From NCBI RefSeq assembly GCF_964204645.1, contig NC_134025.1, forward strand, positions 8,432,001-8,496,000: a stretch of DNA of 64,000 nt. Direction: 5' to 3'. The notes beneath the pieces were generated by a model. It searched no databases and was not told where the DNA came from. It saw nothing but the letters and a program-made list of their open reading frames with translations. The DNA is from Tubulanus polymorphus (taxonomy: Eukaryota > Animalia > Nemertea). The position numbers and the translations under genes are program-made. Shown here piece after piece: positions 27,501 to 59,831 of the stretch (position 1 is its first letter; each line of letters begins with the position of its first letter).

Positions 27501-30500
27501 GAGAAGAAAGTGTATATTGGAAACTTCTTCATTTCTCAAAACACGTTATTTCCACATGTAATTATATTCTTATTTGGATTATTACTTAACCTCTGTAGAG
27601 AGACCTTCACCACCAGCTGGTCGACCAAAGGTTCTGAAAACAACAACAGACTCCATCTCTATTTCATGGCAAGAACCAGTCAGTGATGGTGGCTGTCCGA
27701 TATTACAATATGTCATTGAAAAACGTGATATGTCCAGTCGTTACTGGGTAAAAGCATTGCGAGTACCTGCTTCCAAAACCAAATGTGAAATTGATGGTTT
27801 ACATGAAGGTGGTGAATACATGTTCAGAGTAATAGCTGAGAATTCGGAAGGACTTAGTGAACCATCCCCTGCATCAGAATTAGCTACTTGCAAAGCTCAA
27901 ATCAGTAAGTAAAATTTATTTCATGTTTCATAGAGTTATTTCAAGCAATATGAAAACAATTTTAGTGCAACTACTATTAGATAGTAGTTCTACAGTTAAA
28001 GCTCTCAGTCTGATGTTAATTATGAAGATTTGTTTTTTCCATATGTTTATTTGCTTTGTGATCTTCTACCTGCGATAATCCATCCTTGTAAACGCCGAAG
28101 TAGATAGCAAGCTTATTCTTCCTTGCAAAGTCAGACATCATACGGTGCGAGCTGTATGGAAAGCTTCAGAAGTAATGAACTTAGTTTACAAACTGGTGAA
28201 TGCTGAATATGCTCTCCGGCAATACTTGATTTCAGAAGAACTAATGTTTATCTTTGAAAGTTGTTGCATGAAGGTCATTTCCACATACCAGTTTGGCTTA
28301 GAACATCTGAAAATGTTTTTGCTTGACTCTTGATAAACTCTGATTAAGTGGCAATTCTTGTTCCCACTCGACTATTAAATTCCACTTAAACTCTTATACA
28401 GAGATGTAGTAAAGCTGTTACATCTACAGCATATACTGTAATTTATGAATGATATCTATACCCACTACTTACTTTGTATGTGTCCGTAGATGTAAAAAAA
28501 ATTTTATCTACTCAAGGTTGTGATGAGCATTATTTTTAGTTATGATGGATATGCATTTACAGCAGCTGTTATTAGCCAGACTTTTGTTTATAGCTGCATC
28601 TATTTGTGTCTATATAAACTGTCTAGTTACATATCATAATTGTGATATGATGAAATCAAGCGAATGCTTGAAAGTAGAATTTTCCTCACAAAGCTAGCTA
28701 TGGAATAAGTAGATTTGGTATATGTTATCTTTCTCTTCTCTTCTTCAGAAATGACTCCTCCAACCTTTGTAGAAGATTTGAGGGATATCAACGTTAATGA
28801 TGGCAGTGATGCCACATTCCAAGTTGAAGTCCAAGGAGAACCAGAACCACAAATTAGATGGTTCCGTGAATATAGAGAAGTGTATGACAGCTTGAAATGC
28901 AGAATCAAGAAGAAGGGTAATGTGCACACTCTGGTTATCTATGAAGTTCGACCTGAGGATATGGGAGCAATTGAATGTCGAGCCAGTAACATCGCTGGAT
29001 CAGTTTCCGTATTTGCTCAGTTAACAGTATTAGGTATGATTTCTTGTGTTTAGTGAGTTTAATCATCTTTGAATTAATTATGTATAAAATTCTAATTTGA
29101 CTTTGTAGCTCCTCCACAAATCAGTTTGCCGAAGCGATTGCAAGATGGAATCATTTTCACTCGTGGTGAAACCATACGCCTCAAAGTTCCAGTCCTTGGA
29201 CATCCCCTGCCAGATATAACTTGGACAAAGGACAATGAGGAAATTGAACATGGTGGTCGTATATCAGTCGAAGCTACAGATCGAGATACTACTGTCAATA
29301 TTCATTATGCTGAAAAGGGAGATGGTGGGCTCTATACATTATTAGTAGAAAATGAACTCGGACAAAAACATGTTACCTTCCCGGTACAAGTTACTGATCG
29401 TCCTGATGTACCTGGAAAACCAGTTGCTTTTATAAAGGACAAATACACTGTTGAACTGGAATGGCCAGAACCAATCAATGATGGTGGCTCATTTATTCTT
29501 GGTTACTTCGTCGAACGATGCGAAATCGGTTCAGATTATTGGATTAAAGTTGCCTCTCCACGAACAAATCATGCTTACATTGAAAGTTTCACAGAAGGAA
29601 AACAATATCGATTTAGAGTTCGAGCGGAGAATGTCTATGGCGTCAGTGATGCTAGTGAGCCTTCTGATGTCGCCAGTAAGATTCAAATTTCAAAAGAACC
29701 AGTTGACTACAACAAACTTGGTAAGCCTTGTTCAGTATTAAGTTATAAACAGTTGTTTTTCAGCAGTATATCTAACTAAATTTTGCTTGATTCCAGTTGA
29801 TCCTAATCTGCCGTACATGTATGTTGATGGAGACAAACTTAAGCGAGATTTTGACAGTAAATACATCATCTGTGAGGAGCTTGGAAAGTATGTTAGCTAC
29901 TTTGAGTCTTTTATTGACAATGAGATGTGAGTTTTCTATGAATCGTACTTTCAACGTCATTTCTACATTACAGGGGTGCCTTCGGTGTTGTGCATAGATC
30001 AATCGAGCGATCCACTGGAAAGACTTGGGCAGCCAAGTTCATTACATGCCGTGCTCATGACAAGGAAAAGATCCGTCATGAGATTGATATCATGAATGAT
30101 TTGCATCACCCCAGATTACTTCAGCTCCACGAAGCCTTTGAGCAGCCTGGCATTATGACTTTAATACTTGAATTGTAAGTAATTGTTCTCGTTAATGATC
30201 AATGGTTTATCATCTGTGGTTAAAGTTTTCAGTGTTAATCTGTCTGTATCTTTTCAATAGTGTGTCAGGTGGAGATTTGTTTGAGCGCCTGGTCGAAGCA
30301 GATTACAGTTTCACTGAAGAGGACTGCATCCATTACATACGCCAGATTTGCCAGGGTATCCACCACATGCACAAACACAAGATTATGCATCTAGACTTGA
30401 AGGTAAAAATGATAGAAAATGAAAAATTCAACAATATAACTAAATGATAGTCAAACATTCTATAATTTTATTTCTCTGTAGCCTGAAAATGTTCTCTGTA

Positions 30501-33500
30501 CGACAGAGACTAGCAAAGACATAAAGATCATTGACTTTGGTCTTTCTGAACGAGTTGATCCTGAAAAGAAGATTCGTGTCTTGTTTGGTACTGCTGATTT
30601 TGTCGCACCGGAAATTGTCAAATATGAACAAGTTGGCCTTGCGACTGATATGTGGAGTATTGGTGTCATCGCATACGTTCTGTAAGTATTTCACTGTAAA
30701 TTTCTTTTTTCAATTGTCACAATGCAGATCTGATTTTATTTTCTTTTATTTCATTCATTTTAGATTGACTGGACTTTCGCCATTTGGTGGAGAAGATGAT
30801 AAGGAAACATTTGAAAATGTGATCAATGTAGACTATAGTTTTGATGACGAGGCATGGGATCGAATATCCGATGAAGCTAAAGACTTCATTTCCAAATTAC
30901 TTATTAAGGAAAAGAGGTAATTCATAAGCCAATTGAATAGAGGTATTTAGGTCGGCAAGAAATTAACAAATATTTGTTTCTTTTTTTCAGGAAACGCATG
31001 CCAATCAAAGAGGCGTTAGCTCACCCTTGGTTAAATGTAAGTGGACTCCTTCTATTAAGTCTCAATGTAAACCTCAAATCTTTTTTATGTCCCGCATACA
31101 TGTTAATAACTATTTGTGTGTACAATAATCCAAAATTATGGTTGAAAATTAAATACTTTGTTGAGTGTGCTTATTATTATTGCTTTCCGCTTTCCATTCT
31201 AAATTTAAATCAACTTCCTTATTAGAATATTACTATTGATTTTTCGCTCATTTAACTACTGGGTAGAATCACCGGGTAGTATCACTGTAGTATTATGCTC
31301 ATCAATTAGAATTTGGAGTGATTTCGTATCTGCTTACATATGCTGGCTGTGTCCATGTTCTAGATAATCTGAAAACAACTGACGATAAATTTGGTTTTGT
31401 TTTGACAAACTGGCCAGTTTATCGTCATGTTGTGGTTGATTTGCTTTTGTCTAATGTTTCTAACATTTTGTCTGTCGTATCTTTTGCTTTATCAGCCAAA
31501 ACCAAGAAGGAAACCAACTGTAGAGGTATGTAGTGCTTGTAGAAGCATATCGCTTTGTTATTGATTTGTTGCTTTTGTCCAAATCAAGTTATTGTTCTTT
31601 AAGTAAATGAATACTGTATATATCCTTATACATTTTGTTTATTAGTGTATTCACAATTTTAATGAAATGTACTGGTTTTCACATTGTATATTCATCTTTG
31701 AGCCTTTATATATACACTTTCACAGTTTCTCTGTAAATGACTTTTGAGATTGTATCATATATCGTTCAGCTTAGATATCATATATTTTATGTAAACTTTT
31801 ATTAAGATATTTATCTAGCATAAAAAACATCTAATCACAGTCAATTGCATGCCACATTCAGAAGAAGTTTGAATTTTCAAATTGTTCCTATATTGCTGCA
31901 TATTTTGTTTTAATTATATGTAGCCAATCAAATTTGAAAATATTTACTATTGAAATGGAATCAATGTTTTCATATCTAAATCCGATATTGATGTATTTGT
32001 TGTATTTTAGGGATCAACTGAATTAAAACTTACAAGGAAAAAGTTGGCTACAACCAATCATGAACTAATGCTTACTAAAAGGAGATATCAGGTAGGTTTC
32101 TTTGGTATACTTTGATAAACCTATAAGATTTTGCTGTACTCCACATACCACATATAAATATACCTTTTCATTTGCATTGTTAATCATGCAAATTTTCTTA
32201 CAAATAGCCTCAAGCTGAACAAATCCTTGGAATTGGTCGTCTAGCTGAAATCAGCCCAATCTTCCGAAAGGTTGGTCAGGAAGGTGTTTTTGAGAGAACA
32301 CTGACAATGGGTGAGTTTACAATGATAATTGGACATGAATTTGATCGATTGATACGCTAATAATCTATACATTATCCTTCTTAAATCAATTTTCTAGAAT
32401 TGGCTGATTCTGAACCAATCATATTAAAAGAGCTGAGTGATGTTGATGCATATGAAGGCACATGTGCAAGATTCAGATGTGTTGTTCAAGCTCAGCCTCC
32501 TCCAGATATTCACTGGTATGATAAAACACAATTTATTTCCTTTTTTTTATTCCAATAAGCTCCTTACTGTTTTTGTGCGTATCATCAGAAAGTGACCTGT
32601 ATGTATGTTCTGTTAACAGGTACAAGGATGATCTTGTTCTGACACCAGGAGATCGATACACCATGACGTACAAAGATGGACGTGCTACACTTGACATCGA
32701 TGATCTACAGCCTGAAGATTGTGGAATGTACATCTGTGAAGTTAGAAATGACCTAGGTGCCATCAGCACTTCTGCTGAACTTGAAGTCATTGGTAACTAG
32801 AAAAGAAAAATTAATTGCTGCTATGGTGTTTAAAGGGAATCATCACTTATTTACTCATTTATATTTTTAAGGTACTGGTCGTCGACTGAAGAGACGACTT
32901 TCACTGACTGAAGTGTCACGTGTGCCTAAACCAGTGGAATTTGAAACTGCCAAGGATGTGGATAATGTACCACCTAAAGTCCGTCTTCCACTTATGGACA
33001 CTACTGTCAAGGCTGAGGAAGACTTCCTCTTTACAGTTACTGGTAAGTGGCATTACATATCATATCATAAATGTCCACCAATACCAGTATACATTATTAA
33101 CTTTTTGTTTGTAATAGTTACAAGTCGACCAGAAGCAGAAATAGTCTGGTATCACAACAATACCCGAATTGAGCCAAGTGACCACTTCATTCTGCATGAA
33201 GATTATGGAGGCATCTACCGCCTTGAAATACGTGACATTGATGAAAATGATGCTGGAGAATATAAGTTTGTAGCAGTCAATCCATACGGACAGACGACCT
33301 CCTCCTGTATCCTGACAGTCGTTGCTAGACTCCCACCTGACTATGAACCACCATTCTTTGTCATGGACCTCCATGATACAAAGATTGTCGAAGGAAGCGC
33401 AGTAAGATTTGATGTCAAATTTGAAGGTCATCCTGAACCAGATATCAGATGGTAAGCTATTGTGCGATTTTTTGTCAGATTTTTTCAAATTTTCTTCCTG

Positions 33501-39500: not shown

Positions 39501-42451
39501 CATGTTCTGCTCGAAACTCTGCTGGCCATCAAGAGTGTTCTGCAACTTTGAAAATCATGAGTGGTCGAAAAGAAGAGCAACCACACTTGATTATCAAATC
39601 TGATGAAATCATTGAAATAGAAAAACCTGAGTAAGCATAACATTAATTTCATTTTGCCAATATTGTTTGATTTTATGCGATTATGCTACGGCATTTTTAT
39701 AATGAATTTCAGATCCGATAAAAAGAAATTCCCTCCACGCTTTATCAAACCTCTGGAGCCAATGGAAGTAACTGTTGGGGATAGTGTCCGTATGACTTGT
39801 AATGTACATGGATATCCCCTACCTACAATATTTTGGCTCAAAGACGGATCAAAGGTATGAAAAAATATTTTTTCTTTTCACAAAAAATAATTTCATGACA
39901 AAATGTGTAATAGACAGGTAATAACATCACTCGAATTGTTATGAGTTTGAGCCATCATTTTGATGATGAAATAATCCACCTTAACAAATTCTTTCAATTG
40001 ATATTTAATATGTTCATTCAGTTTAAACTGTTCAAGCAAAATGATAGCCACAGGGTGAACATTTCTCTACAACATGCAAGTTATGACAGGTTTTAGACAT
40101 TTGAGCTAGGAATTTTATTAAATGTCTTGTCCAGTTATTCATCGAAGAACTGATATTTGATTTCTTTAGATTTATGCTGTTTTAATTTAAATGGTAGGAT
40201 TAAGTACAATACTCTTTTATTAGAATTTTAAGTGGCTCATAACACGAATGTAATAAATTAGATATGAATATAAGGTGTTATTCATTTCCCGTTTAATAAA
40301 TCGAGTTTCACCTGAAAAGAAATTAGTAGAGTTTGTTTAGATGTACTGGCTCGTAAGTAAAGTGACTGTGACGGGTCAACAAAATAAAGTCTGGTGTCTG
40401 TCACTGAGTTCAGAATAAACAAGCAAAACGGCACAGAACAATATAGAATATTTGACGGTCAACTTACAGACTTATGTCTAGTGTTAGGACTAATACTATG
40501 AATTATTCAATCATGTATCGTTGATTTGTTTACGTATATATGATTTAATTATGATGTTTTGACATTGTTCATCTGCTGGTTGATCTCTTTCTACTGGCTT
40601 ATTGTAAGTATCTGAAATTGGTACCTGATAAAAGTTGTTATAAACGAATTATGCGCTGAAATACATTTGGATCGTACAATGACATCTTTCTTGAACTTGC
40701 AGCAATTTTAATATTCTCCCATAGCATAGGGTGATATAGTTTACACAGAATTTATGGCACAATTGTAAATAGCTAAATGCTTAATAATAGCTGATTGATA
40801 ATTATCATATTCAGGCGAATTTTATTTACGCTCGGAATAAGAGTTCATGTAGAAGGTATGAGAACCAAGGATTGTATAGGGGATAGGTGCTGTGTACTTG
40901 AAAACGTGTTTCTGAATTAACTAAATACACTGTGCGGAGTGTTGGTACCTTGGATTATGATTTTTCACATAAGTAATGACTTTCAGTGTGGACATTGATA
41001 AGTTAAGGTGAATATGATGCTATCAAAATCTGAATGATTGTTTATAATCAAATGTTTTGTAAATCATAGTATCAATAATCAACAAAAAAAAACTACAAAT
41101 GTGTACTAAATATAAGACTTAGAATAATGACTAATCCTCATTGAGGGATGAAGTACTTGTTCAAGTACGAGTTATATTAATGGTAATAAAAATATTTCTC
41201 TTGTCCAAGTGTTTCCTTAGTCATTCAATAGATCCTTAATTCGTACCCAAACATTATAAAGGAAAAGTCTAAAAAGCTTAAAACCTGTTCTATTATCACG
41301 ATTCCCTTGGTCCCTTATGAGTCAAACTAATGGCTAAGTTTGTTGACTGAACACAAAATAGCTATACCAAACCCAATGCTAGAGAATCTGGCTAATTTTG
41401 ACCTTTGCTGGATTTTCATAGAAAGAGCATAGATATATAGTGTATTAACTATAGCCATGTAAATGTATGTGTTCTACACCACTATGAGTTTGAACAAATT
41501 TTTGCACTGATGATTTAGATTTTTGATATACTGGGGTAAAATGAAACTTAAACTATCATCTTAGAGAAGTTACATGATAGATGTAATTAGATAGATTACA
41601 TAGATATTTGATGCATATATAAGGATTTTGTTTATATTCTATACTGAAATGAATCCGTGGTCACCTGGACAATTTCTTGATTCTTGTTCCATATATTCAA
41701 ATATTTCTCTTAAAGTACATTTTTTTCAAGAGTTCATGTAACTTATGGGAATCATAAGGAAATAGCTCAAGTGACAGCACAAAAATGATGGGTGATTTAT
41801 GAATTACATTATTTACTTAAGTAACTAAACCAGATAAGAGTTTTGAGTGACAAGCTTTATTATGCATAATGTTGCAGTATGACTGTACCATAAAAATGTG
41901 TATCATAACCGTATTAGGTTATTGAGATTTTTTCTAGGTTGGTTATTCAAGCTAATGGTATTTTAATGGCTGATGATAATTAGTTTTTACCACCAGTCTT
42001 ACATGCTACTTTTTTAGAAGGTCATAAATCGTATAGGCAGTTTTCCCAATCTAAAGGTCCTTTCATTACCGGTAATTGCATCCCACAAGCAGGTATTCCC
42101 AAATCTAAAATTATTACTTCCGATAACTACGGTATATAAGATCAGTCCATCCTGTATTTGTTTATTTGTTTCGTTTTAACAGACATGCCTTCTGTGGTAA
42201 GACTAGAGCGGTTTTTAGAAAATGTGTGTGGTTATTGTAATTAGACATTAATTGAACAATCAAATCAAGTTGATTACAACTTTTGATATTTCAGATTGAT
42301 AAAAGTGATCGGGTGAGCCTTGCTCTTTCAAAAGATGGTCTGGCCAGTTTAGAAATAAGTGAAACCAAAAAGGAGGACACTGGTCATTATGCCTGTATAG
42401 CTAGTAATACTGAAGGAGAATCAACTGTTGCAGGAACACTGGAAGTTACAG
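50..42451 (+). CDS. Giant titin/twitchin-like muscle protein, 5'-partial and multi-exon: Fn3/Ig super-repeats, 16 Fn3, Ig-Ig-Fn3, kinase, 10 Ig
   Basis: Dozens of ~300-nt exons bounded by GT..AG, separated mostly by 70-200 nt introns and mostly phase 1 between domains. Translations show Fn3 motifs (P..P...W..P..DGG..I..Y.IE...W...L..G..Y.FRV.AEN..G) and I-set Ig motifs (P.F...C...G.P.P...W...D.G.Y). The frame is maintained exon to exon. No convincing terminal exon at 42451, so the CDS may continue to 59831. Confidence 0.93.
3657..7407 (+). repeat. 10-domain super-repeat copy 2
   Basis: One domain per exon: 3657-3959, 4048-4350, 4437-4724, 4812-5081, 5198-5485, 5607-5903, 5979-6281, 6366-6668, 6758-7045, 7132-7407. 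Position-specific motifs recur (RQGYSTRW, IEVPF..P.P...MTALTISRA, KDPW, VGDPP). Confidence 0.9.
7533..11313 (+). repeat. 10-domain super-repeat copy 3
   Basis: Same domain order and position-specific motifs (RSGYSSRW, IEIPFSACPMP..MTALTISRA, KDPW, VGDAP). Confidence 0.9.
11419..15226 (+). repeat. 10-domain super-repeat copy 4
   Basis: Same order. The last Ig shares an exon with the first Fn3 of copy 5. Confidence 0.88.
15227..19119 (+). repeat. 10-domain super-repeat copy 5
   Basis: Same order (RHGYTSRW, IEVPFAGSPKP..ETIYGMTALT, KDPW, VGDPP). Confidence 0.88.
19228..21252 (+). repeat. 5-domain half repeat (Fn3 x3, Ig x2)
   Basis: Three Fn3 exons, then an Ig beginning VGDAPVI split by a phase-2 intron at its Trp, then a second Ig ending at 21252. 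Confidence 0.85.
21334..27904 (+). repeat. Uninterrupted run of 16 Fn3 domains
   Basis: 13 single-Fn3 exons plus one 3-Fn3 exon (~24143-25060), with no Ig between. Many domains begin P..P.GP(L/I). Confidence 0.85.
29797..32310 (+). CDS. Kinase domain 1 (twitchin/titin-type CAMK) with C-terminal regulatory tail
   Basis: Exons 29797-29887, 29974-30174, 30261-30402, 30482-30681, 30764-30916, 30991-31036, 32011-32091, 32208-32310. These give LGKGAFGVVHR..AAKF..HEIDIMNDLHHPRL..HLDLKPEN..DFG..GTADFVAPE..DMWSIGVI..HPWL, then the tail ..KRRYQPQAEQILGIGRLAEIS. Preceded by Ig (28749-29033) and Ig+Fn3 (29109-29720). Confidence 0.95.
31496..31525 (+). CDS. Candidate 30-nt cassette microexon PKPRRKPTVE between kinase-1 core and its tail
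   Basis: Acceptor cttttgctttatcag and donor gag|gtatgt. Phase 0-0, matching the flanking exons, inside an unusually long intron. Confidence 0.7.
36870..36887 (+). CDS. Candidate 18-nt microexon (EEKPDQ)
   Basis: aattttcag|aagaaaaacctgatcaaa|gtaaga. Phase 1-1, matching flanking exons ending 36619 and starting 37654. Confidence 0.6.
38784..38795 (+). CDS. Candidate 12-nt microexon (EFKK)
   Basis: ttttttcccgcttacag|agtttaaaaagg|gtaagt. Phase 1-1 with strong splice sites. Confidence 0.65.
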
Positions 42452-44729
42452 GTAATCTTAGTTTTACTTTTGAATAGGCCCACCAGGTGGCAACACAAGC
42501 AAGACAGGTTTGGGCTAGTCTATGTCTAGCCGTTATTCCCAGGGGTAACCTGTCAGATTGTCTCGTATTCATACTTGGTTTGGGCATGCAGGTTTCCTAG
42601 GTCTACTCATCAGATTTAAAGCCCACTTTTTAGTCGCCTGCATTTATAGAGCTATTAATAGCTGGGTGGCAATGTAGAATGAAAAATCATTTTCTATTAT
42701 AATGTTTATTTGTGAAGACGCAAAAATAACAATTCAGTCTAGACAAGGGTTTAATACAATATTCGAATGCTCCACGTTTATAGCGTGATTTTCTTTCCAT
42801 ATAGAATCGTGATATCATTAATACTTCTCTGAGCTTAGAAAAGCTTTTCATTTTTATTGAATGTAAAACAGTTTTTCAATTTCTTTGATAGTATTCATCA
42901 AATTAATCAACGTAATATGAAGTATTGCTTAGATAACATTTGAATAAAAAGAAGAAAGATATTTTTCACTTTTAACTTTCTGTAAGGAGAACGAAGGCAA
43001 TCAAAACGAACAACCCTATTCAGGAACAGATGTCACTTGTCTCAAATTGGCATATTAGAATGATATATTGAGTCATTATTAACGACCATAATAACTAGGG
43101 AAACTATCCAATTATCGCTCAGCTGATAATTGGTCATAGTTGTTCTCCTCTGCTGACCATACATGACATCAATTCAAACAAATCCTTTATTTATTTCCTT
43201 TATTCCGCTTTGATGATGTCATAGTGAAAAAATAATCCTGAAGACAATTAATTTCGTAATTTGATCATTCATCAGGATATTAGACAATATAAAAAGGGGT
43301 GTAGTTGTGTAGGGCATAGCTTATTTTGATTATTGATAGAAGATTGAATGTTCGTTTCAAGCCTTCATCATTGATCAGGACTGTATCTCTTCATAAACAT
43401 TTAAGTCGAGTGCTATATGACTCAGTAGTCTCTTCACTGAAGCTAGGCGTGGCATGTGTTAGTTCTTGTTGCATTCTGAAATGATGTGATAAAATCTTCA
43501 AATTAGTGCGATATCAAACTTCTTACATACTTAGTCAATAGAATGGTCATTGCTAAGCGGAAATGTTGAATTTTCTCAGTTGTGCAGGAAATGATATCTT
43601 AATTCCAATCCATATTTTTTCGCGTCAGCATCATATTTGGCTCTGAAATAATTGTGAAACAACTGAACAACGGGCTCCTATTTACGAAGGGATTATTACG
43701 TCTTAAAACGACATCAAACTAATGAAATAGGAAAGCCAGAATAAGGAGCTTTATACTTAGCTACTATTGATTTGACTCTCAATTCATGTGAAATATTTAT
43801 CTGGTGACAAAGATACTGCAGTGCATAGTACTACGAGTGAATTATTACATCGTGTAATCCGTTCGGTGAATCAGCTAAAGTTTGTGACAGTCAGCGATTG
43901 TGTAATTGATGACAACCGTTGATGCTAACTGAACAAAAAAGCAAGCTTGGATAATTTCGCTTTTAATCGCAATCAAGTTGTGCGCTGTCATTGCCGGTAT
44001 AGCATTTATTAATATGCACTTATACTTATGGTGAAGAGTTGTTGAAAACGCGACACAGATTCTGAGGACTGGTCTTGTTCAGAAATTTGCATCTAAACAG
44101 CACTTGCGAAATTGGATAATTTGTTTCAAAAATTGTACAGAAGAGTGTTCCCGTGTAGTCGTGTGCTGAGATATTTGTAATCGTGCTGAACACGCTTTTT
44201 CAAGGGACGAACGTGTTTTGCGAAAATCGCGTCACACAATAACATTGAAGGAGTGCGATATTGTGCATACTCACAAAAGCAATGTATTGACCTGGGTTAA
44301 ATGAATGTCTCTTCGGAATCAAAGGCTCGGTATACAAAGTTTATATGCATATGCCATATAGTATAATACTGTAAAACTGAAAAATGACTGTTTTGTCATT
44401 GAGCGTTTGCAGGTAGTACTGTTTAAAGTGGATTTACGTACAGAAGTTAAATTGAAAGTAGTGGAATATACTCATTGGTAAAGTTTGTTTAACCATTTTG
44501 ACCTTGTGTTTTCCCAGGTTTGAAGGAAATCAGGCAGGTGGAACTGCTTACATTAGACATTCAGGTGTGACACTTTATATCTTACATTCACAACATTGAG
44601 CTCGTTTCTTGGATATAAAAACAACACGAAGTTCGATTGTAGAAGTTGACTAACTGTGGAAGGAAAGTAGCTATATGATTGAAATTGGTTTACTGAATAT
44701 CTGTTGAAAATTGGATCTGTCGTTGAAAA

Positions 44730-46820
44730 ATGGGAAATACTGGATTGAGTTGCGTCGGAAAGTCAGCTGATGCCCCATCTGGTAAAAAGGGGAAAGCTCC
44801 TATCACTATTCCTGATCCACCGACAAATGTCAGGATGATAAGTAAAACGTCAAATTCTATAACCATTGAATGGGACAAACCGGCCTATGATGGAGGTGAC
44901 TCAATTTTTGCATACACAGTTAAATTGTCGAGAGCAGCAAATCGTGGTTGGAAGAAGCTTGATAATGAAGTTGAGAATTTGACATTCACTGCGAAAGATT
45001 TAGACCCAGATACAGAATATATTTTCTTCGTGCAAGCAGAGAATGATCCCGGATTAAGCAAACCTAGTGAGATATCCGCACCATTTAAGACAGATGCTGA
45101 AATGAGGGAGGTCCCTGCCACTTCAGCTTCTGATGTGGGTGTCGTGGAGACGGTAGACAGTGCTATTGATGCTAAGCCAGATGGTGAGAAAGCCAATGAG
45201 AATGAAAACGAGAAGAAGAATGAAGAAAATGAAAATTCTGAAAGTAAAGATAACACTACCAGTCTCAGTACTTCTGCAGAGAAGTATGTTAAGAAAGAAA
45301 AGGAAGATGATAAGCAGTCTAGTTCTAGTGAAAGCGATAAGGAGAATGATGATCAAAAGAAAGAAGAATTTGATGTCAAAAATGCTACAGAGGGGATTAC
45401 AATTGAAGAGGAATCTTCTAATATTGAAGATCAAAATACAGCGGATAAAATAGATGATCTTAATGAAAATAAAGATAAGATTGAAGATGATAACAAAGGT
45501 TTTACAGTTGATTTAAAGTTAAGCGATGTTGTTGGAGACAAAAAGCATTCGTCAGCCTCATCTTCATCGTCGGATGATGATGATAAGGATATGGATACTG
45601 AAAAAGGCAATAAACATAAAGCAGCATTAGCTGGGGTCAGCTCTGACGACACTTTTAAAGCTGAAGCTCAAGATGTGAGCTGTGCTCATAATTCACTGTC
45701 TCGTGCTTATCAGTACAGCAATGACTCACTGTTAGATGACGAAACAAGTGAGGGAACAGAGAAAAATGACATCTTTACGAACAACCAAGCCAATCTTGAA
45801 ATGATGAAACGCTTCATCGAGATAGAGCCAATATCAGCAGAAAAGCATGAAGACATGGAGCTTGCTGGTCATAGCTACAAAGAAAACAGTGAACATCCTG
45901 TGGCGTATGACGACGAAGAGATTGACCACAGATTGAGCATAATATCAGAGAAATCCATGGAAGATTTAGATAAAGACAGCTCAATCAAAGTGATTGAGAA
46001 TTGTAAAACCATGAAGGATACTGAAAATCTTCGTCATGAGAATAGCATAACGGAAAATACTTCCATTGTAGAGCTGAATGGTAATACTGAAATCAAGACG
46101 GAGATTACAAAGATGACTTCATCCAGAATTCCAACTCTAGCTGGTACACGGGTTGACAGTCCTACAAGCATAGAAACTGTCACCTTAACTGCTACATCTA
46201 CTAAGTCAGAATCTAAGATTCCAACTTTGGGATCTGCTTTTTTGATGACATCTACAAAAATGACTAAACAATCGACTACACCACCATCGTCTCTGACACG
46301 GATGAAATCTGGAAGCAAGATTCGTCCAGAGTCTCCGGAAATCAATGTAGCTGTCAAGACTGAAGATGGAACTTCTCCGAGTGATATTAGGAAATCATCA
46401 ATACCTACAGTTGCCCGTAGAAGTTCTCTGCCTAAGGTGAAATCTGGAAGGTCAGACAGTCCATTACAGCGTCAGACATGTGATGATATGATACATTCAG
46501 AAAATAAAGATTCTCCGAGATCAGGTATACCTCGTCCCGGATCAGTAAATTCCAACAAATCATCATCATCCGATATCTCTGCCTGTTCAACACCAACACG
46601 AAGTCCACTGCCTGACAATAAACTCAACCAAACAGCGAAGTGCGGAATCCCAAAATCATCAAAAAGCGCAATTCCTCGATCTTCAAACATACCTGGACCA
46701 AAAATAAATAGTATTCAGGCTGGCAAAATGGCTACTCCGGGACTAGAGAAGGTGACCGTAAAGAACACTCAATACAGCCAGTCGCTGCGTGGAGATCTGA
46801 ACACCCATAGCGACACATAA
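44730..46820 (+). CDS. Intron-nested intronless 696-aa ORF: MG..C N-terminus, Fn3, acidic low-complexity region, basic S/T/P-rich tail with multiple SxIP motifs
   Basis: 2091-nt uninterrupted ORF. Start context aaaaATGG with an in-frame TGA two codons upstream. Fn3 PDPPTNV..IEWDKPAYDGG..YIFFVQAEN..G.S. Possible 5'UTR intron 44413-44517. AATAAA at 47263. Confidence 0.85.
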   Translation: MGNTGLSCVGKSADAPSGKKGKAPITIPDPPTNVRMISKTSNSITIEWDKPAYDGGDSIFAYTVKLSRAANRGWKKLDNEVENLTFTAKDLDPDTEYIFFVQAENDPGLSKPSEISAPFKTDAEMREVPATSASDVGVVETVDSAIDAKPDGEKANENENEKKNEENENSESKDNTTSLSTSAEKYVKKEKEDDKQSSSSESDKENDDQKKEEFDVKNATEGITIEEESSNIEDQNTADKIDDLNENKDKIEDDNKGFTVDLKLSDVVGDKKHSSASSSSSDDDDKDMDTEKGNKHKAALAGVSSDDTFKAEAQDVSCAHNSLSRAYQYSNDSLLDDETSEGTEKNDIFTNNQANLEMMKRFIEIEPISAEKHEDMELAGHSYKENSEHPVAYDDEEIDHRLSIISEKSMEDLDKDSSIKVIENCKTMKDTENLRHENSITENTSIVELNGNTEIKTEITKMTSSRIPTLAGTRVDSPTSIETVTLTATSTKSESKIPTLGSAFLMTSTKMTKQSTTPPSSLTRMKSGSKIRPESPEINVAVKTEDGTSPSDIRKSSIPTVARRSSLPKVKSGRSDSPLQRQTCDDMIHSENKDSPRSGIPRPGSVNSNKSSSSDISACSTPTRSPLPDNKLNQTAKCGIPKSSKSAIPRSSNIPGPKINSIQAGKMATPGLEKVTVKNTQYSQSLRGDLNTHSDT

Positions 46821-47262
46821 TGTATCACTTGAATTGCTCAAAATAACTTTATTTTAATGTATGGAATAATATATAAAAACAGTGACTTAAAATGAAATGG
46901 CATCCGCCATGGTGTAAGCAGGTACTTTTAAATTTCGGATGTTCAAATATTTTGATCCTCTGATTGCTGAACTGTGCCGTATTCGTACTTGGACTACACC
47001 ATGGATACAATAGTATCACCATCAGGACTGTGATAGATTATACATAGAGACATACATATAAACGCTGCTATCATATTTACTATTACTACTAAATGTAAAT
47101 CATTACAAGTATCTGCCTCCGAATTGCAAAACTTGGGAAATTGTACACGAAACGCACAAATTCGAAGGATTTTAGACACAGTTACGAAGGAATTCAAAGT
47201 TATTTTTTAGCTATAGCTTGATCCTGTTAACATAGATAAACTGAGCTTTGCTAGTGACACAT

Positions 47263-47268
47263 AATAAA
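47263..47268 (+). terminator. Candidate polyadenylation signal for the nested ORF
   Basis: AATAAA about 440 nt after the stop at 46820, followed by a GT/T-rich stretch. The AT-rich background makes chance occurrence possible. Confidence 0.35.
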
Positions 47269-47543
47269 CAGTATGTTTTTTACCGCGACATTATAATATA
47301 ATCTTTTAATGATATTTTGAATATTCATCTGATAGTGAGATTTTTTAGTTAGGATTTGGAATTATAGTTTAGCTGTTTTATCGCGAGTGCGCATAGATGA
47401 CAAGGAAGAATGAACTTTTTTGCAACAATGTAAAGACTGGTGAATGTTTTTAATGCCATCTATTAATCATTGTTGCTGCTGTGAGAAAACATTTATATCT
47501 GGATTATTTCTGTGACTGCGTATATGTACATACTGGTATATCA

Positions 47544-47580
47544 ATGGACTTTGCATCAAGAGAGCTTCACGTTCTGCAGG
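47544..47580 (+). CDS. Candidate alternative first coding exon (MDFASRELHVLQ) for a stand-alone MLCK isoform
   Basis: tcaATGG start, 37 nt, near-consensus donor agg|gtgagt. Phase 1, matching the acceptor at 48973. Confidence 0.6.
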
Positions 47581-48972
47581 GTGAGTGGTATTCGAATGAC
47601 TTATTTATTTGAAAAAAAAATAGATTCCAGATTTCGCTTGAAATTATTTGCAATTCAAGTCGAACACTGGCACTCAATAAGTAGGTAACTCACATCACTA
47701 AAGTAAATAGTTGATTTTTGGTTAATTATCCGAAATGTTAATTGCCACCACTTGTGTTTCTGATCTGTGGAAGGTTACTATCGAATCATTTTAGAAATTC
47801 ACTACACATATGATTAATGATATAAATAGAAAATGATTTTGATATTAACAACAATAATGAATTCAAATTGGCAATAACGATTTAACCGGTATTTCATTAT
47901 CTATTGTCCTTTTCGATGCCTGTGATCCTTTTACGTACAAGGTTTAAGACTGAAAAATTTGAAAAAAGGTCATCCATAATGAAACATGTTTTGTGTGATT
48001 TGTTGTTACTATGCATTTTGGGTGATATATAATATCTACCAACTGGATTATTTTATGATACGAAAAACCAGTTTTGGGAATGAATTATTCAGTGTTGAGG
48101 TCTCTTTTTACATATATACAATTAAGTTAATTCTCTCCAAACCGCTCTGACCCATTTCAGTACTATTTCTTATTCAGTACCATACTGAATCACCGATCAA
48201 TTCTCTCTTGTTAAGTTTACTATTTTTCAAAGGCAATCTCCGCTCTTTAGAAATTCCTTCTGAATGTTAAATGTTCCAATGAGAATAGAATGCGAAAGAA
48301 ATGATTTAGTACACTCGCTAGGCTGGTCTTTTCTTATGAAATGAGCGCTAAATCTAGATTGTGGTTTTTCATAAGGTATGATTGCGGTAGGCTGGGGTTA
48401 TTTCAAATTTGAATATTCAATTAATCCACTTATGTAACCATGCATTTTTTCATTATGGTTTTGTAGTTTATTCGATCTTATCGTGCATATATGTATATTA
48501 TAATATAGTGCTGGTACCACCATGATAGTTACATTATCATGAGCTATTAACCTTCAGTAGCATTTGTTCAACCTTTGGTTGTAAATGTGCCAAAGTCGAC
48601 GCTTGATTAGGTGTAATTCTAACCTTTTACCATAATTTTTACCCAGTAGATACACAGTAGTGTCAATATCTTCATCAAGGCAGAGAGTTGTATATTTTCT
48701 ATCTGAGATCATTTAATCTCTCAAATACACTGTGGGTATTCTGAATAATGTCAAATTTGTTCATTTAACATCAAATCATTTCCTTTCAATATCTGTTTTT
48801 CAAAGGTATTTCTCTCGGCAATTGATAAGGTACTAAGTGCATAATAATAGACTACAATGAGGACTGGTTTTTAATGGGCAATATAAAGCCTGAGATGGGA
48901 ATGTATAACTTGCGCTCCTTGGAATGTTGTCATGACAGGATTGAGATTACTAAATTTTGTGTTATGTTCCAG

Positions 48973-51900
48973 CTGCAATAAAAACAACAAAAAAGAAGGA
49001 CAAATCACCACCTCCTATTGTCAAAGATGTGGAAATGGTAGAAGAAGAACCAGTTCCTATGATGAAGACCACCGAACCTATTAGTATGTTGATGATTTTT
49101 GCTACGTTCAACATGATTTCAATGAATGAATATAAAATGACTAATAAAAATTGTAATACACGATGTATCTGTTTAACGTAGAATACTGTCAATGTTTGCA
49201 AGCATTCACCTTAAACAATGGTTTTCGATATTAACAATTTTCCTCGTAGGCAAAACACCAAAGGTAAAGAAGATCAAAGAATATCCGCCTCGTTTTATCA
49301 TAAAACCACGAAAAGTTGCAGTAGATGAAGGTTCGTCGGCGAAGTTTCGTATAACATTAGACGGTGAACCGTTACCGACTGTTACCTGGGAAAAGGATGG
49401 TGAACTACTATCCTCAGGCGAAAAGTATCAGGTAATGAAAACAGATTGATCTATATACAAATATAATTTCATAAATAGAGTAGGTATCGATCACAGATTT
49501 TCAGTATTGCATAGAATTGTAAAATTACATGCACATACATAAGATGGCAATCATGGGTCAAATGTATGAGTCTATTCATAGTACAGTAGGGCGGCTCCTA
49601 TTTTCAGCAGTCTTATTTGGTAAATCAAGATCCATTTGAAAATGATACCATGAAAACAATATGGGTGTATAACACATTTTTTAGCTTGAGACTTAAAAAA
49701 TATATGCAAGGAAATATCATGAAAAATTGTGCTGTAGGGAAAGAGAATATTCATTTAATGTTTTCTTTTGATCGAATTTTTAGATTCATTCTGATACCGA
49801 AGGCTATTATTATTTGGAGATTGGCAACACGACGAAAGCTGATGAAGGGTTGTACACTTGTGTACTTTCCAACTCGGTTGGTAAAGAATCCCTCTCAGCT
49901 TCACTTACTATCAATGAAACCATTAAACCTCTGGCCGAACAAAATTTTGCACCAGTCTTTGAACATGAATTGGAAGACATAACTGTCACTGATGGAGAAT
50001 CACCAGTTTGGCGTTGCAATGTAAAAGGTCAGTTTAGTGTCAATTTATTTTCTACTATTAAAGCCAAAAGGTGAATTCATGAATGAAATACACTGTGTTC
50101 GGATTTTTTTAGTGCATCAGTGAAATGAAAATAGATGATAATTTCAGTGGATTATAGAAATTAATACTTTCATACAGATGTTCTCGCCTTATCAATGAAA
50201 CATGTGTCAGATGTATTAGATTACTGTTTCAATTCAGAGTAAATTACGTAAATATGTGCATACGCAGTCGGTGTCATTTATTCAATATTCGTAGCTTGAA
50301 ATCTTTCTAATGTTATAAACTATGATTTGTGGCATCTGTCGTGCTTGTTTCGTCCAGATTGACATCGTTTGATATAAGTTTCTATATATGTTACACTTGA
50401 TCTAACTTTTTCTGGCATTCGATTACTAGTGAAAATGTGCTGTGATATATAATCTAGGAGTGTTGCTCACTTGTCCACTTCAAATAATATGGATAATATC
50501 GAGTTTATATGGAATTGCAGGAAAACCAGTGCCAACTATATCTTGGTATCGCGAAGGTAAAATCTTGCCTCCATCAAAAGACTTCAAACAGACATATGAC
50601 AGCAAAACAGCGAAGCTAACCATTCCAGAAATTTTCCCTGAGGATGAAGGCATATTCGAGTGTGTTGCTAAGAATGATGCTGGTGAAGCCCGTTCAAAAT
50701 CACATCTTCGAGTAACTGGTAAGTATACGCCTCCAGTACCCTGGGTCTATTTACACAATAGCTCTGAATTTTATTATTTTCAATTAAATTTAACTAACAA
50801 CCTCACTTTATTTCATCAGCGCCTCAAAGGCATATCACCTCTGGTATATACAAGCTTCGAGTACTTTTTACGTGATTTAATTCATTTGATCAAGATAAAA
50901 TATACTTGACATATCCTGTTCATACACTTCATAGTGCACACAAAATGTTTGGTCACTTTGTAGATAAAATAATAACTCTTGTAAATATCAATTGCTCTTC
51001 TCATCTTAATGGCTCTGAATTATATTAAGATTTGTGCTTTTCATTACCTCTTGCAGCTAATTCTGTAACAATTGCTGCAATCTGTCACTGGAATGTACTG
51101 CTGAAATAAACAGAAATATTCTTTCAATGGAGCCTTTGAGATCAGATATATTGTATTACATGATTCAAGTAATCATTGCCAGTTATGGCTTTGAATCAGC
51201 GATTTACTTACTTGAGTCAACAACTCAATCAATGGGTTGAACATGGCCCCTTTTTCATTTAATTTGTTGGCAAACACTGAAAAAAGCTTGTACCTTTGAG
51301 ATATTTATTGATCAAGGGGCTTCTAATTGACCGATAACACTCAATATACAATGATCATTGCATGCTTATTATATGCTTTACAGTGCCAGATCACAGTATG
51401 AAGAAACCGCCTGTATTTGTGAAGGAACTTTCTCCAAAAAGAGTGAATGATGGTGAAAAAATAGTTCTCGAATGTACTGTCAATGGTAAGATTTAAGAAG
51501 AGATCATTCCAGTTAAAACTAATTGCTAAACATAGATCTTTTTTGTGGCTTTTTTTACCTAAGATATTGTTGAATTCATGCAAAATCTATTTCTAATGTA
51601 GGAAATCCTGAGCCAGTGATTACTTGGTTTAAAGACAAGACTGAGCTTAAGTCGACTGCTGATTTCCGTCTGTTGTTTGATGGAGCAACTGCTCGCCTAG
51701 AGATCGACGAGGTTTACATGGACGATGATGGTGAATATGTCTGCATAGCAAAAAATCCCGTCGGAGAAGTAAAGACATCCAGTAAAGTCACTGTCATTGG
51801 TAAATATTGAATAATTTAACTAATGATAGGATAGATCAACTGTAGTCAGCAATTGGAAGCCAATGTCTTAATTACTGGCATTGATTGTGGCACTTGCTTG

Positions 51901-54900: not shown

Positions 54901-57900
54901 TATTCTATAAATCAAACGAACATTTTACATCGGTGATACTGATTCACAATGCTATGTATGATTAGATTCAACACAGAATATGGTTATACTAAGGGGTGAG
55001 GACTTGGAATATGTATTTAGATAATGCAGATTTGCAGGGTATTTATGATTTTTCTGTTTATTTTTAAAGAAGTGAAAGATTTTGTACCAAAGAAGACTAC
55101 TGAAGGAGGAGATCTGACACCTATATTTGAGGAACTACCAAAAAATGTATCGGTGAAGAAAGGCAAAACGATCACTCTGAAAGCTGTTTTCAGTGGTTCG
55201 CCGCAACCAACCGTGAAATGGTTGATCGCTGGCCAAGAGATTAAAGCAGGTACGGTACGCTTGATTATTTGTTATTTGTTGTGTCAATATTTATTTCGTT
55301 GACTGCCTACTACAGATAAAGCGCTGGTTAGAATCAGTGATCCATGGTTTCCACTTGAAATGATCATTAGAATTTCATTTCATTTCATGTTCAAACCACC
55401 TTTTGATCATTTTCAAACTTCCTCTTAGGGAACACACTTTGCATTGCATTTCTACCATTCTAAATAGGATACAATCTATCTTTTCTGCAGGTGGCCGAGT
55501 TAGAATAGAATCTATCCGTGACAAGACATCTCTGACAATCAAAGACAGTACGCCAAAAGACACCGGTAGATACGAAGTCATTATCAATAACAAACTTGGC
55601 ACTGACAGCACTCGGGCTTCAGTCACAGTTGAAGGTAAAAAGCAAATGGATAGAATTATTTTCAAAAATATAAAAGTTATTGAAAGGTTAAAAAGCTATG
55701 CATATACGATGATTTTGTCAAAATTTGAAATGGTAATTCCGAAATATAGTTTAGTGCAAGAAATTGTAATTCTGTAACTGTATTTGGTTTATTACAGACA
55801 TTCCTAATCCTCCAGCTGGGAAACCAGTAACTTCACGCGTGACAAAGAACTCGCTAACACTCTCATGGTCCGGACCGAACTACGACGGTGGCAGTCCAGT
55901 TACAAATTACATCGTCGAAGCTATCAAATTAGGCTCTGAATTTGAGAGGTGGCGCGTGCTTACATCAAATTGTAAGGTGAGTTGATGTATCTACTAATGA
56001 ATTGATCATAATTGATTAGTGATTTGGTGGCATAATTGATTATTTGATTGCAGCAATCATATACTTTTATCCAGTTTTATGTTTTGTTTGTCCAGCGCTA
56101 ATAATGCACAATAGCTCGATAGTATGACTTTACATAAACCGTGGCAATAATGACTGGACAAGTATATTTATGTTTGTGGGGTCAATGAGCAGAGTATACT
56201 TCCAACCAAATTCTTATCTCTGAGTATATGTATGAAAACATACGTATAGTTGAAAGGATTCCTGTGTATATTGCCTGCTTTATCTGAAATAAGAATCAAT
56301 TGAGGAACCAGTTTTGATAGTGGCTAGATAAAGTTATTATAGTGACTGGACTAGTTGATTTTATATTCAGTTCATCTCCCATTGTTGAGGAAGTAACTTG
56401 TTCAATAGATAAGTAAATCGGAATATATATACTCAATAATACATTGCAGAGTACATCATACCAAGTGAAAAATCTCGAAATGGACAAGGAATACCAGTTC
56501 CGTGTACGTGCTGAGAATAAACATGGATCCAGTGACCCTAGTGAATTATCAAAAGAAACACTTATGACTGATGATCTGGCTACAAGTCTATCAGAAGATG
56601 AGAGTAAGTTTATATCATTTACAGTTGATGATTTCCATTTCAACAACTTTATCTAACAACAGATGCCATAATGAAGTAGCCAATCCAAAAAAAAATAATT
56701 CATTTTTTAAAGTCTTCCTTTTGGCATTCTTAACCTGACGATGAACATTGCATGACACCAAAAGTTTGCATGATAAGATCTGTTGAAGCAATTAGCATCT
56801 AACTAAAGAAAAGTTGAAAATTGAAGGACACATTATCAAGAAACTTATTACCTGATAATACTGACTTTCACTAAGTATTTCATGATTTCTTCTTCTAAAA
56901 CTTGTAGATGTTTCCTTTTGACTTATTTTTGTTTTCATACTAACCTAGACATTTCTCGTCTGAATTTCCATTTTCTTTGTGCAGAGTGGGAGCCAAATCA
57001 AAAATATTCGTTCATATGATAACTGAGGTGTGCATGTGTTTTCCTTGTAGTTTTAACAAAGTATCCTATGCTGTGGCGTAGAACTAGTCTTTGGGAAACG
57101 GTGGTTGAATCTGAAGTTGATGGTAAATAATATATGAGAAATTGGCTTGATTTTCACTTACACGTGATGATATACGTGATTTCACCAACCACAGGGCAAA
57201 CGTGCAGGCATAAAAAACTGAAACAGCTTTCTGTGGTATGCTGTGAAATGAAAAATTTTGTAAGCACCACCACTGCACTTTTCATACTGCGGTTGCAATG
57301 ATATAACCTATTCATTTCACAATCATGAAATGTATTAGAATAGATTTATATCACCAAGAACAATATATGTTTTATTAACCAGTATCTGTAATATCATGTA
57401 TTCATTTGAAAGAGCACTGTGTGTAACCACCAAGTAATTAATTTGATAATTCCGAAAACACATACTAACTCAATTTGATTTTAATGTTCTTGAATATTAA
57501 TCTTTTATTTTGTTTTTTTTAATCTAAAGCTGATGGTTCCTTCAATCCAGGTGAAGTTCAAGTCAAGGTCAATCAGGACTATCATCAGTTCTATGATGTT
57601 CTTGAAAAACTTGGAAAGTAAGTACATATATTATTCTGAAGTACACTACAATATTTCCATAGTGAAACAAAAACAATGAACACATTTACTTTCCTTACAG
57701 GGGACGATTTGGCAGTGTTCATATGGTCAAAGAAAAAGCAAGCAAGCGAAAGTTTGCTGCTAAAGTCATCAAATATCGCACATCAGAGAAAGATGAGCGA
57801 TTCTGTGAAATTGACATTATGAAAGAATTGCGACACCCAAATCTTGTCCAATTATGGGATGCTTATGATTTGAAACGAACACTAGTCATTATTATAGAAT

Positions 57901-59831
57901 AGTAAGTCTAGACCTATGTATTTCTGTAGGATTATCATGTTGCTTAAGAGCTACATTTAGATATTGATATTTCAGTGTCGGTGGTGGTGAATTGTTTGAG
58001 CGAATCGTTGATGAGGAATTTGATCTCACTGAAAAGGACTGCATCGGTTTCATGCAACAAATCTGTAATGGACTTCGATTCATGCATCAACACAACATAC
58101 TGCATTTAGATCTGAAACCTGAAAATATTTTATGCATTGACAAACAGAGTACAAACATCAAACTCATTGACTTTGGTTTAGCTCGACGATTTGACCCGAA
58201 AAAGGAGTTGAAGGTACTCTTTGGAACACCTGAATTTATTGCTCCTGAAGTTATCAACTATGACAGAGTTGGATTTACCACAGACACTTGGAGCCTTGGC
58301 GTCATCTGCTATGTTCTGTGAGTACTTGAATAATGATATTCTCAATGATTATGATTATCTTAATATGACCTTAGATACTGACAATGCCAGTGTTAATTTT
58401 ACAGATTATCAGGGTTGTCTCCATTTGCTGGTGATAATGATCAGGAAACATTCGCAAATGTAACTGCAGCTAAATGGGACTTTGAGGACGATGAGTTCTT
58501 AGATATATCCGATGATGCTATAGAATGGATTGAAAAATTACTTCTAAAGAACAAAGAGTAAGCATTAAATTTCATGGAGTATGAGTGACTGACCCAGTAT
58601 GTGCGAGTTAGTTGGGAATCAGATTCTGTCTATTTTTTTTCCAGTTTTTGATAGATACATGTTTCTGATGATAACTAAATTATTTTTGTAGCAAACGTAT
58701 GGATGTGGAAGCCTGTTTGGCCCATCGATGGCTCGCTCAACCCACAGACCAAATGAAAGAGAAGAAATTAAGCAAAGAAAAATTAAAACACTTCCTCGCC
58801 AAGAGAAAGTGGCAGGTATGTAAATATGATCTGACAAAATTTTGTTTATGACAAGACAAACATTAAAGTTATATGAATTCAATGTGACTGGTTCAGAGTC
58901 TGGATGACTGCTTGCTTCTAAGTTGTAAGAAATGATTGAAATTTCATTATAACATACATAAAATTTTGAGTGCTTTACATGTACAATAACTGCATGAATA
59001 CTTCCTAATCCTAAACTTAAGAAAAGTTGAAAATAAAGTATGATTTAGCGGATAGATCATGACTTAACTCTTCCAATGCATGTTTAGATTTGATGTTAAG
59101 CCATTAATCAGTTGTTGAATATGAAATAGTTCATATAAACTTTGACAATTTATTATAAACTAACAATTACCGGTAGGTCACTATTTTTGTTGTTTTCATT
59201 AATTGCATGATGCATGGTGTTCTGATTTGTATTTTGTAGAAAACCGGGAATGCAATTCGAGCTATTACACGTTTGTCCCAGCTTCACAGTCGTTCTAGTA
59301 GCATGCCACGTGCTCACAGTGAAAGTAGTTTATTGAGTGGTGAATCAGACTCTGAACTCAGCGATGCGTCCGTTTCACCAGCGGGACATAGATCTTTTAC
59401 TCTCATTGATACCTAACCAGTTCGTCATAGAAACCGCCCGAAATCTTCTCACGGTCTGCTGTCATTTGTGTGTTCAGGTACAACAAGAAGCAGACGAATT
59501 CCTTGAATTGTCAAGCACTGATAAAGATCTGGAGAAGGCAAGCTTCTCCAAGAAGATGAAAGACAATGAACTGTTTGAAGGTGACACGGCACTCTTCGAG
59601 GTTAAAGTCACGTCTGCACCGAAATCCCGCGTCATTTGGTACAAGAATGATCGCGTGATGAAACCGGCAAAACATGTTGTATTCAAGCAAGAGAAAAATG
59701 GCGTTTATTCGTTGATGATTGAAAATGTTTCGATCGAAGATGACGCCGAATACAGTTGTGTGGCTTGGAATGCTGCTGGCCGCCGTTCGTGTGATGCCCA
59801 GCTGTTTGTCGAAGCTGTACAATCACCGTAA
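48973..59831 (+). CDS. MYLK: Myosin light chain kinase-like module (smooth-muscle MLCK architecture): Ig array, DFRxxL-like motifs, Ig-Ig-Fn3, kinase, CaM-binding segment, telokin-like Ig
   Basis: Exons 48973-49083, 49250-49431, 49784-50027, 50521-50718, 51384-51485, 51602-51799, 52062-52190, 53493-54076, 54223-54370, 55070-55249, 55491-55634, 55798-55976, 56450-56603, 57530-57617, 57701-57901, 57976-58317, 58405-58557, 58692-58815, then 59240-59416 and/or 59478-59831. Motifs LSWSGPNYDGGS, LGKGRFG, GGELFERIVDEEFDLTE, HLDLKPEN, DFGLAR, VLFGTPEFIAPEV and KKLSKEKLKHFLAKRKWQKTGNAIRAITRL. The symbol indicates family resemblance; orthology is untested. Confidence 0.88.
50820..50843 (+). CDS. Candidate 24-nt microexon (APQRHITS)
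   Basis: Branch-point-like actaac, acceptor tttatttcatcag, weaker donor ctg|gtatat. Phase 1-1. Confidence 0.4.
53051..53098 (+). CDS. Candidate 48-nt cassette exon (GAPHESVFYSTDDSFA)
   Basis: ttttgtgattacag| ... ccg|gtaaat. Phase 1-1, open frame, in a TGCATG-rich intron. Confidence 0.45.
57051..57122 (+). CDS. Candidate 72-nt cassette exon (ILTKYPMLWRRTSLWETVVESEVD) in the Fn3-kinase 2 linker
   Basis: ttttccttgtag| ... atg|gtaaat. Phase 1-1, open frame, TGCATG at 57031. Confidence 0.6.
57530..58815 (+). CDS. Kinase domain 2 (MLCK-type) with autoinhibitory segment
   Basis: All catalytic motifs present: GxGxFG, AAK, alphaC Glu (CEIDIM), HLDLKPEN, DFG, APE, DTWSLG. Confidence 0.95.

Follow-up and report, generated by a model that had tools for sequence, protein, structure and literature searches.

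The window, i.e. the whole stretch of 64,000 nucleotides from Tubulanus polymorphus contig NC_134025.1 that was analysed, harbors a titin/MLCK locus. Between 29942 and 59831, a twitchin-like gene (kinase and about five Ig domains) runs straight into a long MLCK-like unit in which about ten Ig domains are followed by DFRxxL-like repeats, an Ig domain, an Fn3 domain, a kinase and another Ig domain. RNA joins exons from approximately 38.4 kb to approximately 55.6 kb. At 53480-54118, an exon whose counterpart in a crinoid MLCK is 35% identical contains DYRTLL and DFRDVI, which we take to be actin-binding DFRxxL-like motifs. Frameshifted retroelement-like ORFs of high GC content are located at 61936-63668; judged by motif, they presumably encode a Penelope-like reverse transcriptase, and for 61936-63276 no Pfam match was obtained at E 0.001.

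Between the two kinase modules (kinase-like exons around 29.9-31.0 kb and around 57.7-58.8 kb), an intronless ORF encoding 696 amino acids and starting with MGNTGLSC is situated at 44730-46820 on the forward strand (Table 1). An earlier note on this DNA, written from its letters, had described the ORF and its position in these terms, and both were confirmed. Given the base composition of the intron, an open frame of 696 codons would arise by chance with a probability of approximately 1e-24. An in-frame TGA stands one codon upstream of the codon preceding the ATG. The claimed succession of an acidic spacer and a basic tail agrees with the residue counts: residues 122-460 contain 92 D/E versus 41 K/R, residues 461-696 contain 35 K/R versus 18 D/E (31% S/T, 9% P). 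In an AlphaFold model calculated with a four-sequence alignment as input, 592 of the 696 residues had a pLDDT below 50 and the Fn3 domain was the only part with a confident fold. Sequence analysis revealed no transmembrane segment, and Pfam domain searches found neither a TOG domain nor any other domain besides Fn3.

Table 1. Features of the nested gene and its host locus (positions within the window)
Feature	Position	Strand	Basis
Twitchin-type kinase exons (first kinase), after about 50 Fn3 repeats	29942..31030 (approximate)	+	Domain matches
Host Ig exon upstream of the intron	42295..42451	+	Domain match, RNA joint
Host intron holding the ORF (6,521 nt, GT-AG, phase 1)	42452..48972	+	Joint in RNA run X2
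Intronless ORF, 696 aa (P0001)	44730..46820	+	ORF list/translation; RNA contigs colinear; homolog alignment
MGNTGLSCVG, predicted myristoylation (Gly2) and palmitoylation (Cys8) signal	44730..44759	+	Conservation in 4/4; modification inferred
Fn3, titin/twitchin/MLCK type (WxxPxxDGG)	44814..45077	+	Pfam PF00041; model; titin Fn3 as best solved relatives
SAEKYV, invariant, in acidic spacer	45273..45290	+	Four-protein alignment
YQYSNDSLLD, invariant	45708..45737	+	Four-protein alignment
RLSIISEKSME, predicted phospho-responsive PP2A-B56 docking motif	45930..45962	+	Conservation, published LxxIxE consensus
Basic Ser/Pro-rich tail with six SxIP plus SSLP, SPLP and CGIP; predicted EB-binding cluster	46122..46694	+	Motif counts, context rules
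AATAAA, candidate poly(A) signal	47263..47268	+	Sole AATAAA between ORF stop and next host exon
Host exon downstream of the intron	48973..49083	+	RNA joint
MLCK-type kinase exons (second kinase) of the host locus	57700..58815	+	RNA joints, kinase search

A gene inside a host intron

Four sequencing runs contain the region, all from one study and none recorded as RNA. Run X2, which is unstranded and of low depth, was taken as RNA on account of its GT-AG joints (at least 15 listed). X3 and X4, which are without joints and have adapter-like ends, were taken as DNA. X1 provided short pieces only, and X5 gave none, which does not count as evidence. One X2 joint connects 42451 with 48973 and skips 6,521 nt. 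The whole ORF lies inside this intron and has the orientation of the host, whose exons from 39180 to 53097, once joined, form a single open frame of 627 codons. Nesting within the titin/MLCK locus, as proposed before, is thus shown. An RNA signal was also found for the ORF itself, albeit in one unstranded run of low depth: X2 contigs with a depth of 5-15 and without any joint account for 1,638 of the 2,091 bases. They are colinear with the genome over 44455-44947 and 45401-47286, and across the uncovered stretch (44948-45400) the homologs align. The last contig stops at 47286, 23 nt past the start of the AATAAA, though contigs cannot prove the end of an RNA. Elsewhere in the same intron, X2 pieces with a depth of 3-7 (43.1-43.7, 44.0-44.2 and 47.9-48.1 kb) may represent untranslated regions or pre-mRNA. 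The other host introns between 39.7 and 52.9 kb contain no X2 contigs (12 bins match exon-only depth), which fits a separate transcript, a weak argument since contigs show presence only.

Some further observations concern the same region. The sequence TATAAAA is found at 44614-44620, 116 nt upstream of the ATG, and a possible untranslated exon of 47 nt with a pyrimidine-rich acceptor and a GT donor at 44518-44564; use of either was not seen. At 46002, X2 shows a T>C exchange (Cys425 to Arg) that is absent from an X4 contig of the same sample and is probably an allele. An X2 contig at 43475 has a 17-base loose end matching 62787-62803 and is probably a chimera.

Given its orientation, the ORF might also be thought to act as a last exon that the host uses alternatively, in which case a shortened Ig-rich protein would carry the SxIP tail at its C-terminus. 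A candidate poly(A) site within the intron and AG sites of the right phase at 44766 and 44919 would allow this. However, an in-frame stop lies just upstream of the ATG, the best of the upstream acceptors (44517) is followed by a stop at 44568, and an X2 contig passes unspliced through the start codon and the two AG sites; joints leading into the ORF were not seen. The RefSeq model of the Lineus homolog and the Logan protein start at the same Met, and neither YSNDSL nor RLSxISE was present in any of 150 long proteins (the best 150 of 7,316 matches). An alternative last exon is therefore very improbable. Most probably, the intron of the MLCK-like gene harbors an independent gene that has no introns of its own.

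A family of four proteins

A word-index search covering proteins of up to 1,218 aa, in which 7,986 candidates were scored, yielded four proteins, three full-length homologs and one match confined to Fn3. The homologs are a JGI protein of 661 aa, LOC135499477 of Lineus longissimus (XP_064646307.1, 636 aa) and a Logan protein of 623 aa. Pairwise identities within the family are 35-37%, except between the JGI and Lineus proteins, which are 75% identical, and the four members thus stand for three independent lineages. Shared by all four are MGNT, SCV, one Fn3 domain, SAEKYV, YQYSNDSLLD, RLS[IM]ISE[KR]SxE and, in the basic tail, a [ST]x[IL]P cluster. The Lineus protein has the same architecture and motifs as the 696-aa protein, with 35% identity over the alignment.

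The novelty presumed in the earlier note stood up to these searches: no characterised full-length relative was found by word-index, profile, Atlas and solved-structure searches, and LOC135499477 is annotated just as "uncharacterized". A profile built from the four aligned proteins detected no further member. Neither did a search of 50% representatives among the best 150 of 7,316 matches, which were dominated by multi-Fn3 proteins. Among the 116 pattern matches of a metagenome contig scan, only one locus was detected, encoding an unrelated multi-Fn3 protein. On the eukaryote-like metagenome contig L001, an open frame (4437-10046) that encodes 1,870 aa or more comprises Fn3 and other-type repeats and is unrelated to the family. 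The Atlas matches FNDC8 and FSD2 (0.80-0.85) were rejected as relatives because they reflect Fn3 alone. The Lineus MLCK was absent among the 120 of 3,593 matches listed for a search with the kinase exons (proteins up to 2,000 aa). In a literature search covering few subscription papers, neither a plus-end tracker uniting SxIP with fibronectin type III nor a gene nested in a twitchin intron was found, and titles and opening abstracts disclosed no myristoylated/palmitoylated SxIP protein or LxxIxE plus SxIP protein like this one. The family is real and apparently undescribed.

The N-terminus is kept across three lineages that are about 35% identical, with eight residues among the first 12 identical in all four proteins (the N-terminus of P0002 was taken from its internal Met11). 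Each member possesses Gly2 and a Cys within the first ten residues, at position 7 or 8. N-myristoylation signals prefer Ser/Thr at position 6. The lack of a Ser at this position, which had been remarked upon before, is true of the 696-aa protein (Leu6, Ser7, Cys8), while the three homologs, which begin with MGNTFSCVSG or MGNTGSCVG, have Ser6 and Cys7. Thus, the position-6 caveat is removed for the family but not for the 696-aa copy. A precedent for the double modification is cyclin Y, a myristoylated protein that is palmitoylated at Cys7/8 (PMC9913408, in part). According to the available part of another report, myristate by itself is too weak as a membrane anchor (PMC3668125).

The Fn3 domain comprises residues 29-116 (Pfam PF00041, E 6.5e-14) and contains YDGG at 44886-44897. 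Both the single domain and this tetrapeptide had been correctly recognised, but the designation of YDGG as MLCK-like needs qualification since it is common in MLCK Fn3 domains without being diagnostic. It was present in 16 of 29 Fn3 domains from the kinase search versus two of the 51 complete Fn3 domains in the window, one of the two being the ORF's own, and one of the three homologs reads SDGG instead. By pairwise score against the four members, the Fn3 of the host MLCK ranks 1, 2, 7 and 12 among 110 Fn3 domains. This is a hint of a local origin from the host MLCK, which the trees do not confirm. The family Fn3 domains form one group (97/90), whose neighbors, host domains included, are without starred support; a second tree comprised 44 of 114 rows, and its titin-like rows had been picked by score against the family. 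The host MLCK Fn3 (55803-56560) is split by a predicted intron (55977-56449), whereas that of the nested gene is intronless. This difference would fit retroposition, if the two domains are related.

The type of the Fn3 domain bears on the question of where the protein acts. It is conceivable that the plus-end tracker is not mainly membrane-bound and that its muscle-type Fn3 attaches to myosin filaments or titin-like proteins, thereby linking microtubule tips to myofibrils. The titin/MLCK character of the domain, the ranks of the host Fn3, the location of the gene in a muscle-gene locus and Leu6, which weakens the myristoylation signal of the 696-aa copy, are in line with this idea. On the other hand, MGNT and SC are invariant in all four proteins, although a soluble protein would not need them, and in the tree the family Fn3 was not placed beside any host domain with starred support. 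A link to myofibrils is thus unlikely, and attachment to a membrane is the preferred reading.

Conserved blocks and SxIP tail

The motifs listed in the earlier note were all present, but the two best-conserved blocks outside the Fn3 domain, YQYSNDSLLD and LxxIxE, had been missed. No other 11-column window of the protein is as well conserved as that of YQYSNDSLLD, in which 10 of 11 columns are invariant versus a maximum of 8 of 11 in the Fn3 domain. Grb2 SH2 prefers YxN phosphotyrosine sites. Both Tyr residues of the block and the Asn two positions past the second Tyr are invariant in the four proteins. The family might therefore comprise acylated signalling adaptors, in which the Tyr of Y-S-N-D is such a site and tip tracking just delivers the adaptor; an acylated protein with a YxN site would show what we take to be an FRS2-like layout. 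However, YxN has a low information content and occurs as one site only, and the invariant DSLLD following it is left unexplained. An adaptor of this kind is improbable.

In the RLSIISEKSME region, 8 of 12 columns are invariant versus 3 of 61 in the preceding spacer. LS[IM]ISE, present in all four proteins, fits the B56 consensus [LMFI]xx[ILV]xE and is located in a disordered region. At positions 2, 7, 8 and 9 of the motif, acid or phosphate is favored, as stated in the available part of PMC5586252. Since 44-76% of shuffled proteins contain the loose motif and 5-14% contain strict LxxIxE, only its conservation within a divergent spacer counts. Ser is invariant at motif positions 2 and 8 and position 7 is occupied by Lys/Arg, so that the block has no acid at the favored positions unless it is phosphorylated. 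The basic position 7 argues for weak B56 binding until phosphorylation occurs. The B56 site of Cyk4/RACGAP1, RLSTIDESGS (PMC5586252 Table 2), shares R-L-S-x-I-x-E followed by a phosphorylatable Ser with the family, but has Ser at position 7 in place of Lys/Arg; the likeness is one at the level of the motif only.

In the tail, the six SxIP motifs as well as SSLP, SPLP and CGIP were all encountered where the earlier note had placed them. Residues 408-696 contain six strict SxIP motifs versus a shuffle mean of 0.27, a number reached by none of 100,000 shuffles. The looser pattern [ST]x[IL]P occurs 8, 10, 9 and 11 times in the four tails, each count again matched by 0 of 100,000 shuffles. The homologs carry 9-11 of these motifs, the 696-aa protein eight. 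Clusters beyond chance are thus conserved in all four members. Per 240 residues, 8-11 motifs are present in the family versus a maximum of six among 274 other proteins, a weak control as these are mostly folded Fn3/kinase proteins. Two context rules for SxIP, a nine-residue window without acidic residues and a basic residue among the preceding four (PMC4834103, in part), are satisfied by 6 of 8 motifs in the 696-aa protein and by 5 of 11, 5 of 9 and 6 of 11 in the homologs. SKIP495 and SPLP625 have an acidic neighbor. The pLDDT of the tail is below 50 almost throughout, and only 20 of 285 alignment positions are invariant while the motifs persist. Such persistence amid divergence is what selection on the motifs would produce. 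At three places the motifs of all four rows fall into one column, although it is the motifs themselves that drive the alignment there. As described in the available part of PMC4834103, repetition of SxIP raises tip affinity and phosphorylation nearby suppresses it.

Known plus-end trackers and proposed function

A membrane-attached SxIP protein is of a kind already known from AMER2 and STIM1 (PMC5399970, PMC4834103, each in part). AMER2/FAM123A is likewise mostly disordered, has approximately 650 aa, is encoded by a single coding exon and is a membrane-linked SxIP tracker (PMC5399970, PMC4834103 and, in the portions available, PMC2949870). It differs by a phospholipid-binding domain and the absence of Fn3, whereas the 696-aa protein has a predicted acylation signal and an Fn3 domain, with 8-11 motifs in the family. 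STIM1 also joins EB-decorated microtubule tips to a membrane by means of a SxIP motif (PMC4834103, in part), but it spans the ER membrane and has a single motif, in contrast to the many motifs and the lack of a transmembrane segment in the 696-aa protein. CLASP and SLAIN resemble it in their repeated SxIP motifs within basic disordered sequence, and CLASP in addition captures tips at the cortex under the control of kinases. CLASP contains TOG domains and reaches the cortex via LL5beta, whereas Fn3 is the only domain found in the 696-aa protein.

Membership in the AMER/WTX family was rejected, as none of the six block consensuses (B1-B6) given in the available part of PMC2949870 scored above shuffles in any of the four proteins. 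Pfam PF09422 (AMER/WTX) did not match any member at E up to 10. Although not an AMER, the protein may work like AMER2. It could more specifically be an invertebrate functional counterpart of AMER2, in which YQYSNDSLL is a binding site for the APC armadillo domain and recruits APC and EB to the membrane. The APC-armadillo ligand consensus reads XGGG[DE]X-hydrophobic-hydrophobic, and QYSNDSLL is the best match in all four proteins to the Amer1-A2 core SYSGDALY (PMC4860839, in part), with the acidic fifth and the hydrophobic seventh and eighth positions retained. In addition, AMER genes likewise have a single coding exon, and an AMER2 cluster was the only Atlas match listed for residues 290-696 (0.77). 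An Atlas score below 0.8 is at chance level, however, and the motif match is marginal, with 106-173 of 5,000 shuffles (2-3.5%) scoring equally for this core, one of three that were tried. Moreover, Asn replaces the fourth-position Gly, the most conserved residue of the consensus, and Gln the position-1 Ser that is required by A2 (PMC4860839, in part), and neither an AMER block nor PF09422 was recovered. Such a counterpart is quite unlikely. Decidedly doubtful, too, is its most elaborate version, an independently evolved invertebrate AMER2 counterpart born from an MLCK Fn3 in an MLCK intron, with two lipids, about ten EB motifs, a PP2A-B56 switch and an APC-armadillo motif with Asn for Gly, which would perform cortical capture while being co-expressed with a contractility kinase.

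According to the main reading, to which we assign a probability of about 50% on the basis of sequence, the protein would carry myristate and palmitate and act as an EB-binding scaffold at membranes, where it would capture microtubule tips under the control of kinases and PP2A. A multivalent membrane-to-tip linker had already been proposed in the earlier note; its predictions at the sequence level held, and motifs support the proposed function. Gly2 would be myristoylated and the nearby Cys palmitoylated, which probably fixes the N-terminus in a membrane. The acidic disordered spacer of approximately 340 residues may keep the tail clear of the bilayer. Multivalent binding of EB at growing plus ends is very probably the role of the 8-11 [ST]x[IL]P motifs in the basic tail. 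With slightly better than even odds, phosphorylation of Ser/Thr beside the motifs would free EB, and PP2A-B56 docked on LxxIxE, strengthened by phospho-Ser2/Ser8, would reset the tail. The Fn3 domain, SAEKYV and YQYSNDSLLD may determine where the protein acts by binding additional partners.

The weight of this proposal is limited insofar as the family consists of four sequences, the sole named one being nemertean, and the functional steps are inferred from motifs. If it is right, the family would represent a new architecture among the few plus-end trackers attached directly to membranes and would combine unusually many EB-binding motifs with a phosphatase docking site of its own in one disordered chain. 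Multivalency and phospho-switching of tip capture would then be easy to test in these proteins, and YQYSNDSLLD is a candidate for a new linear motif.
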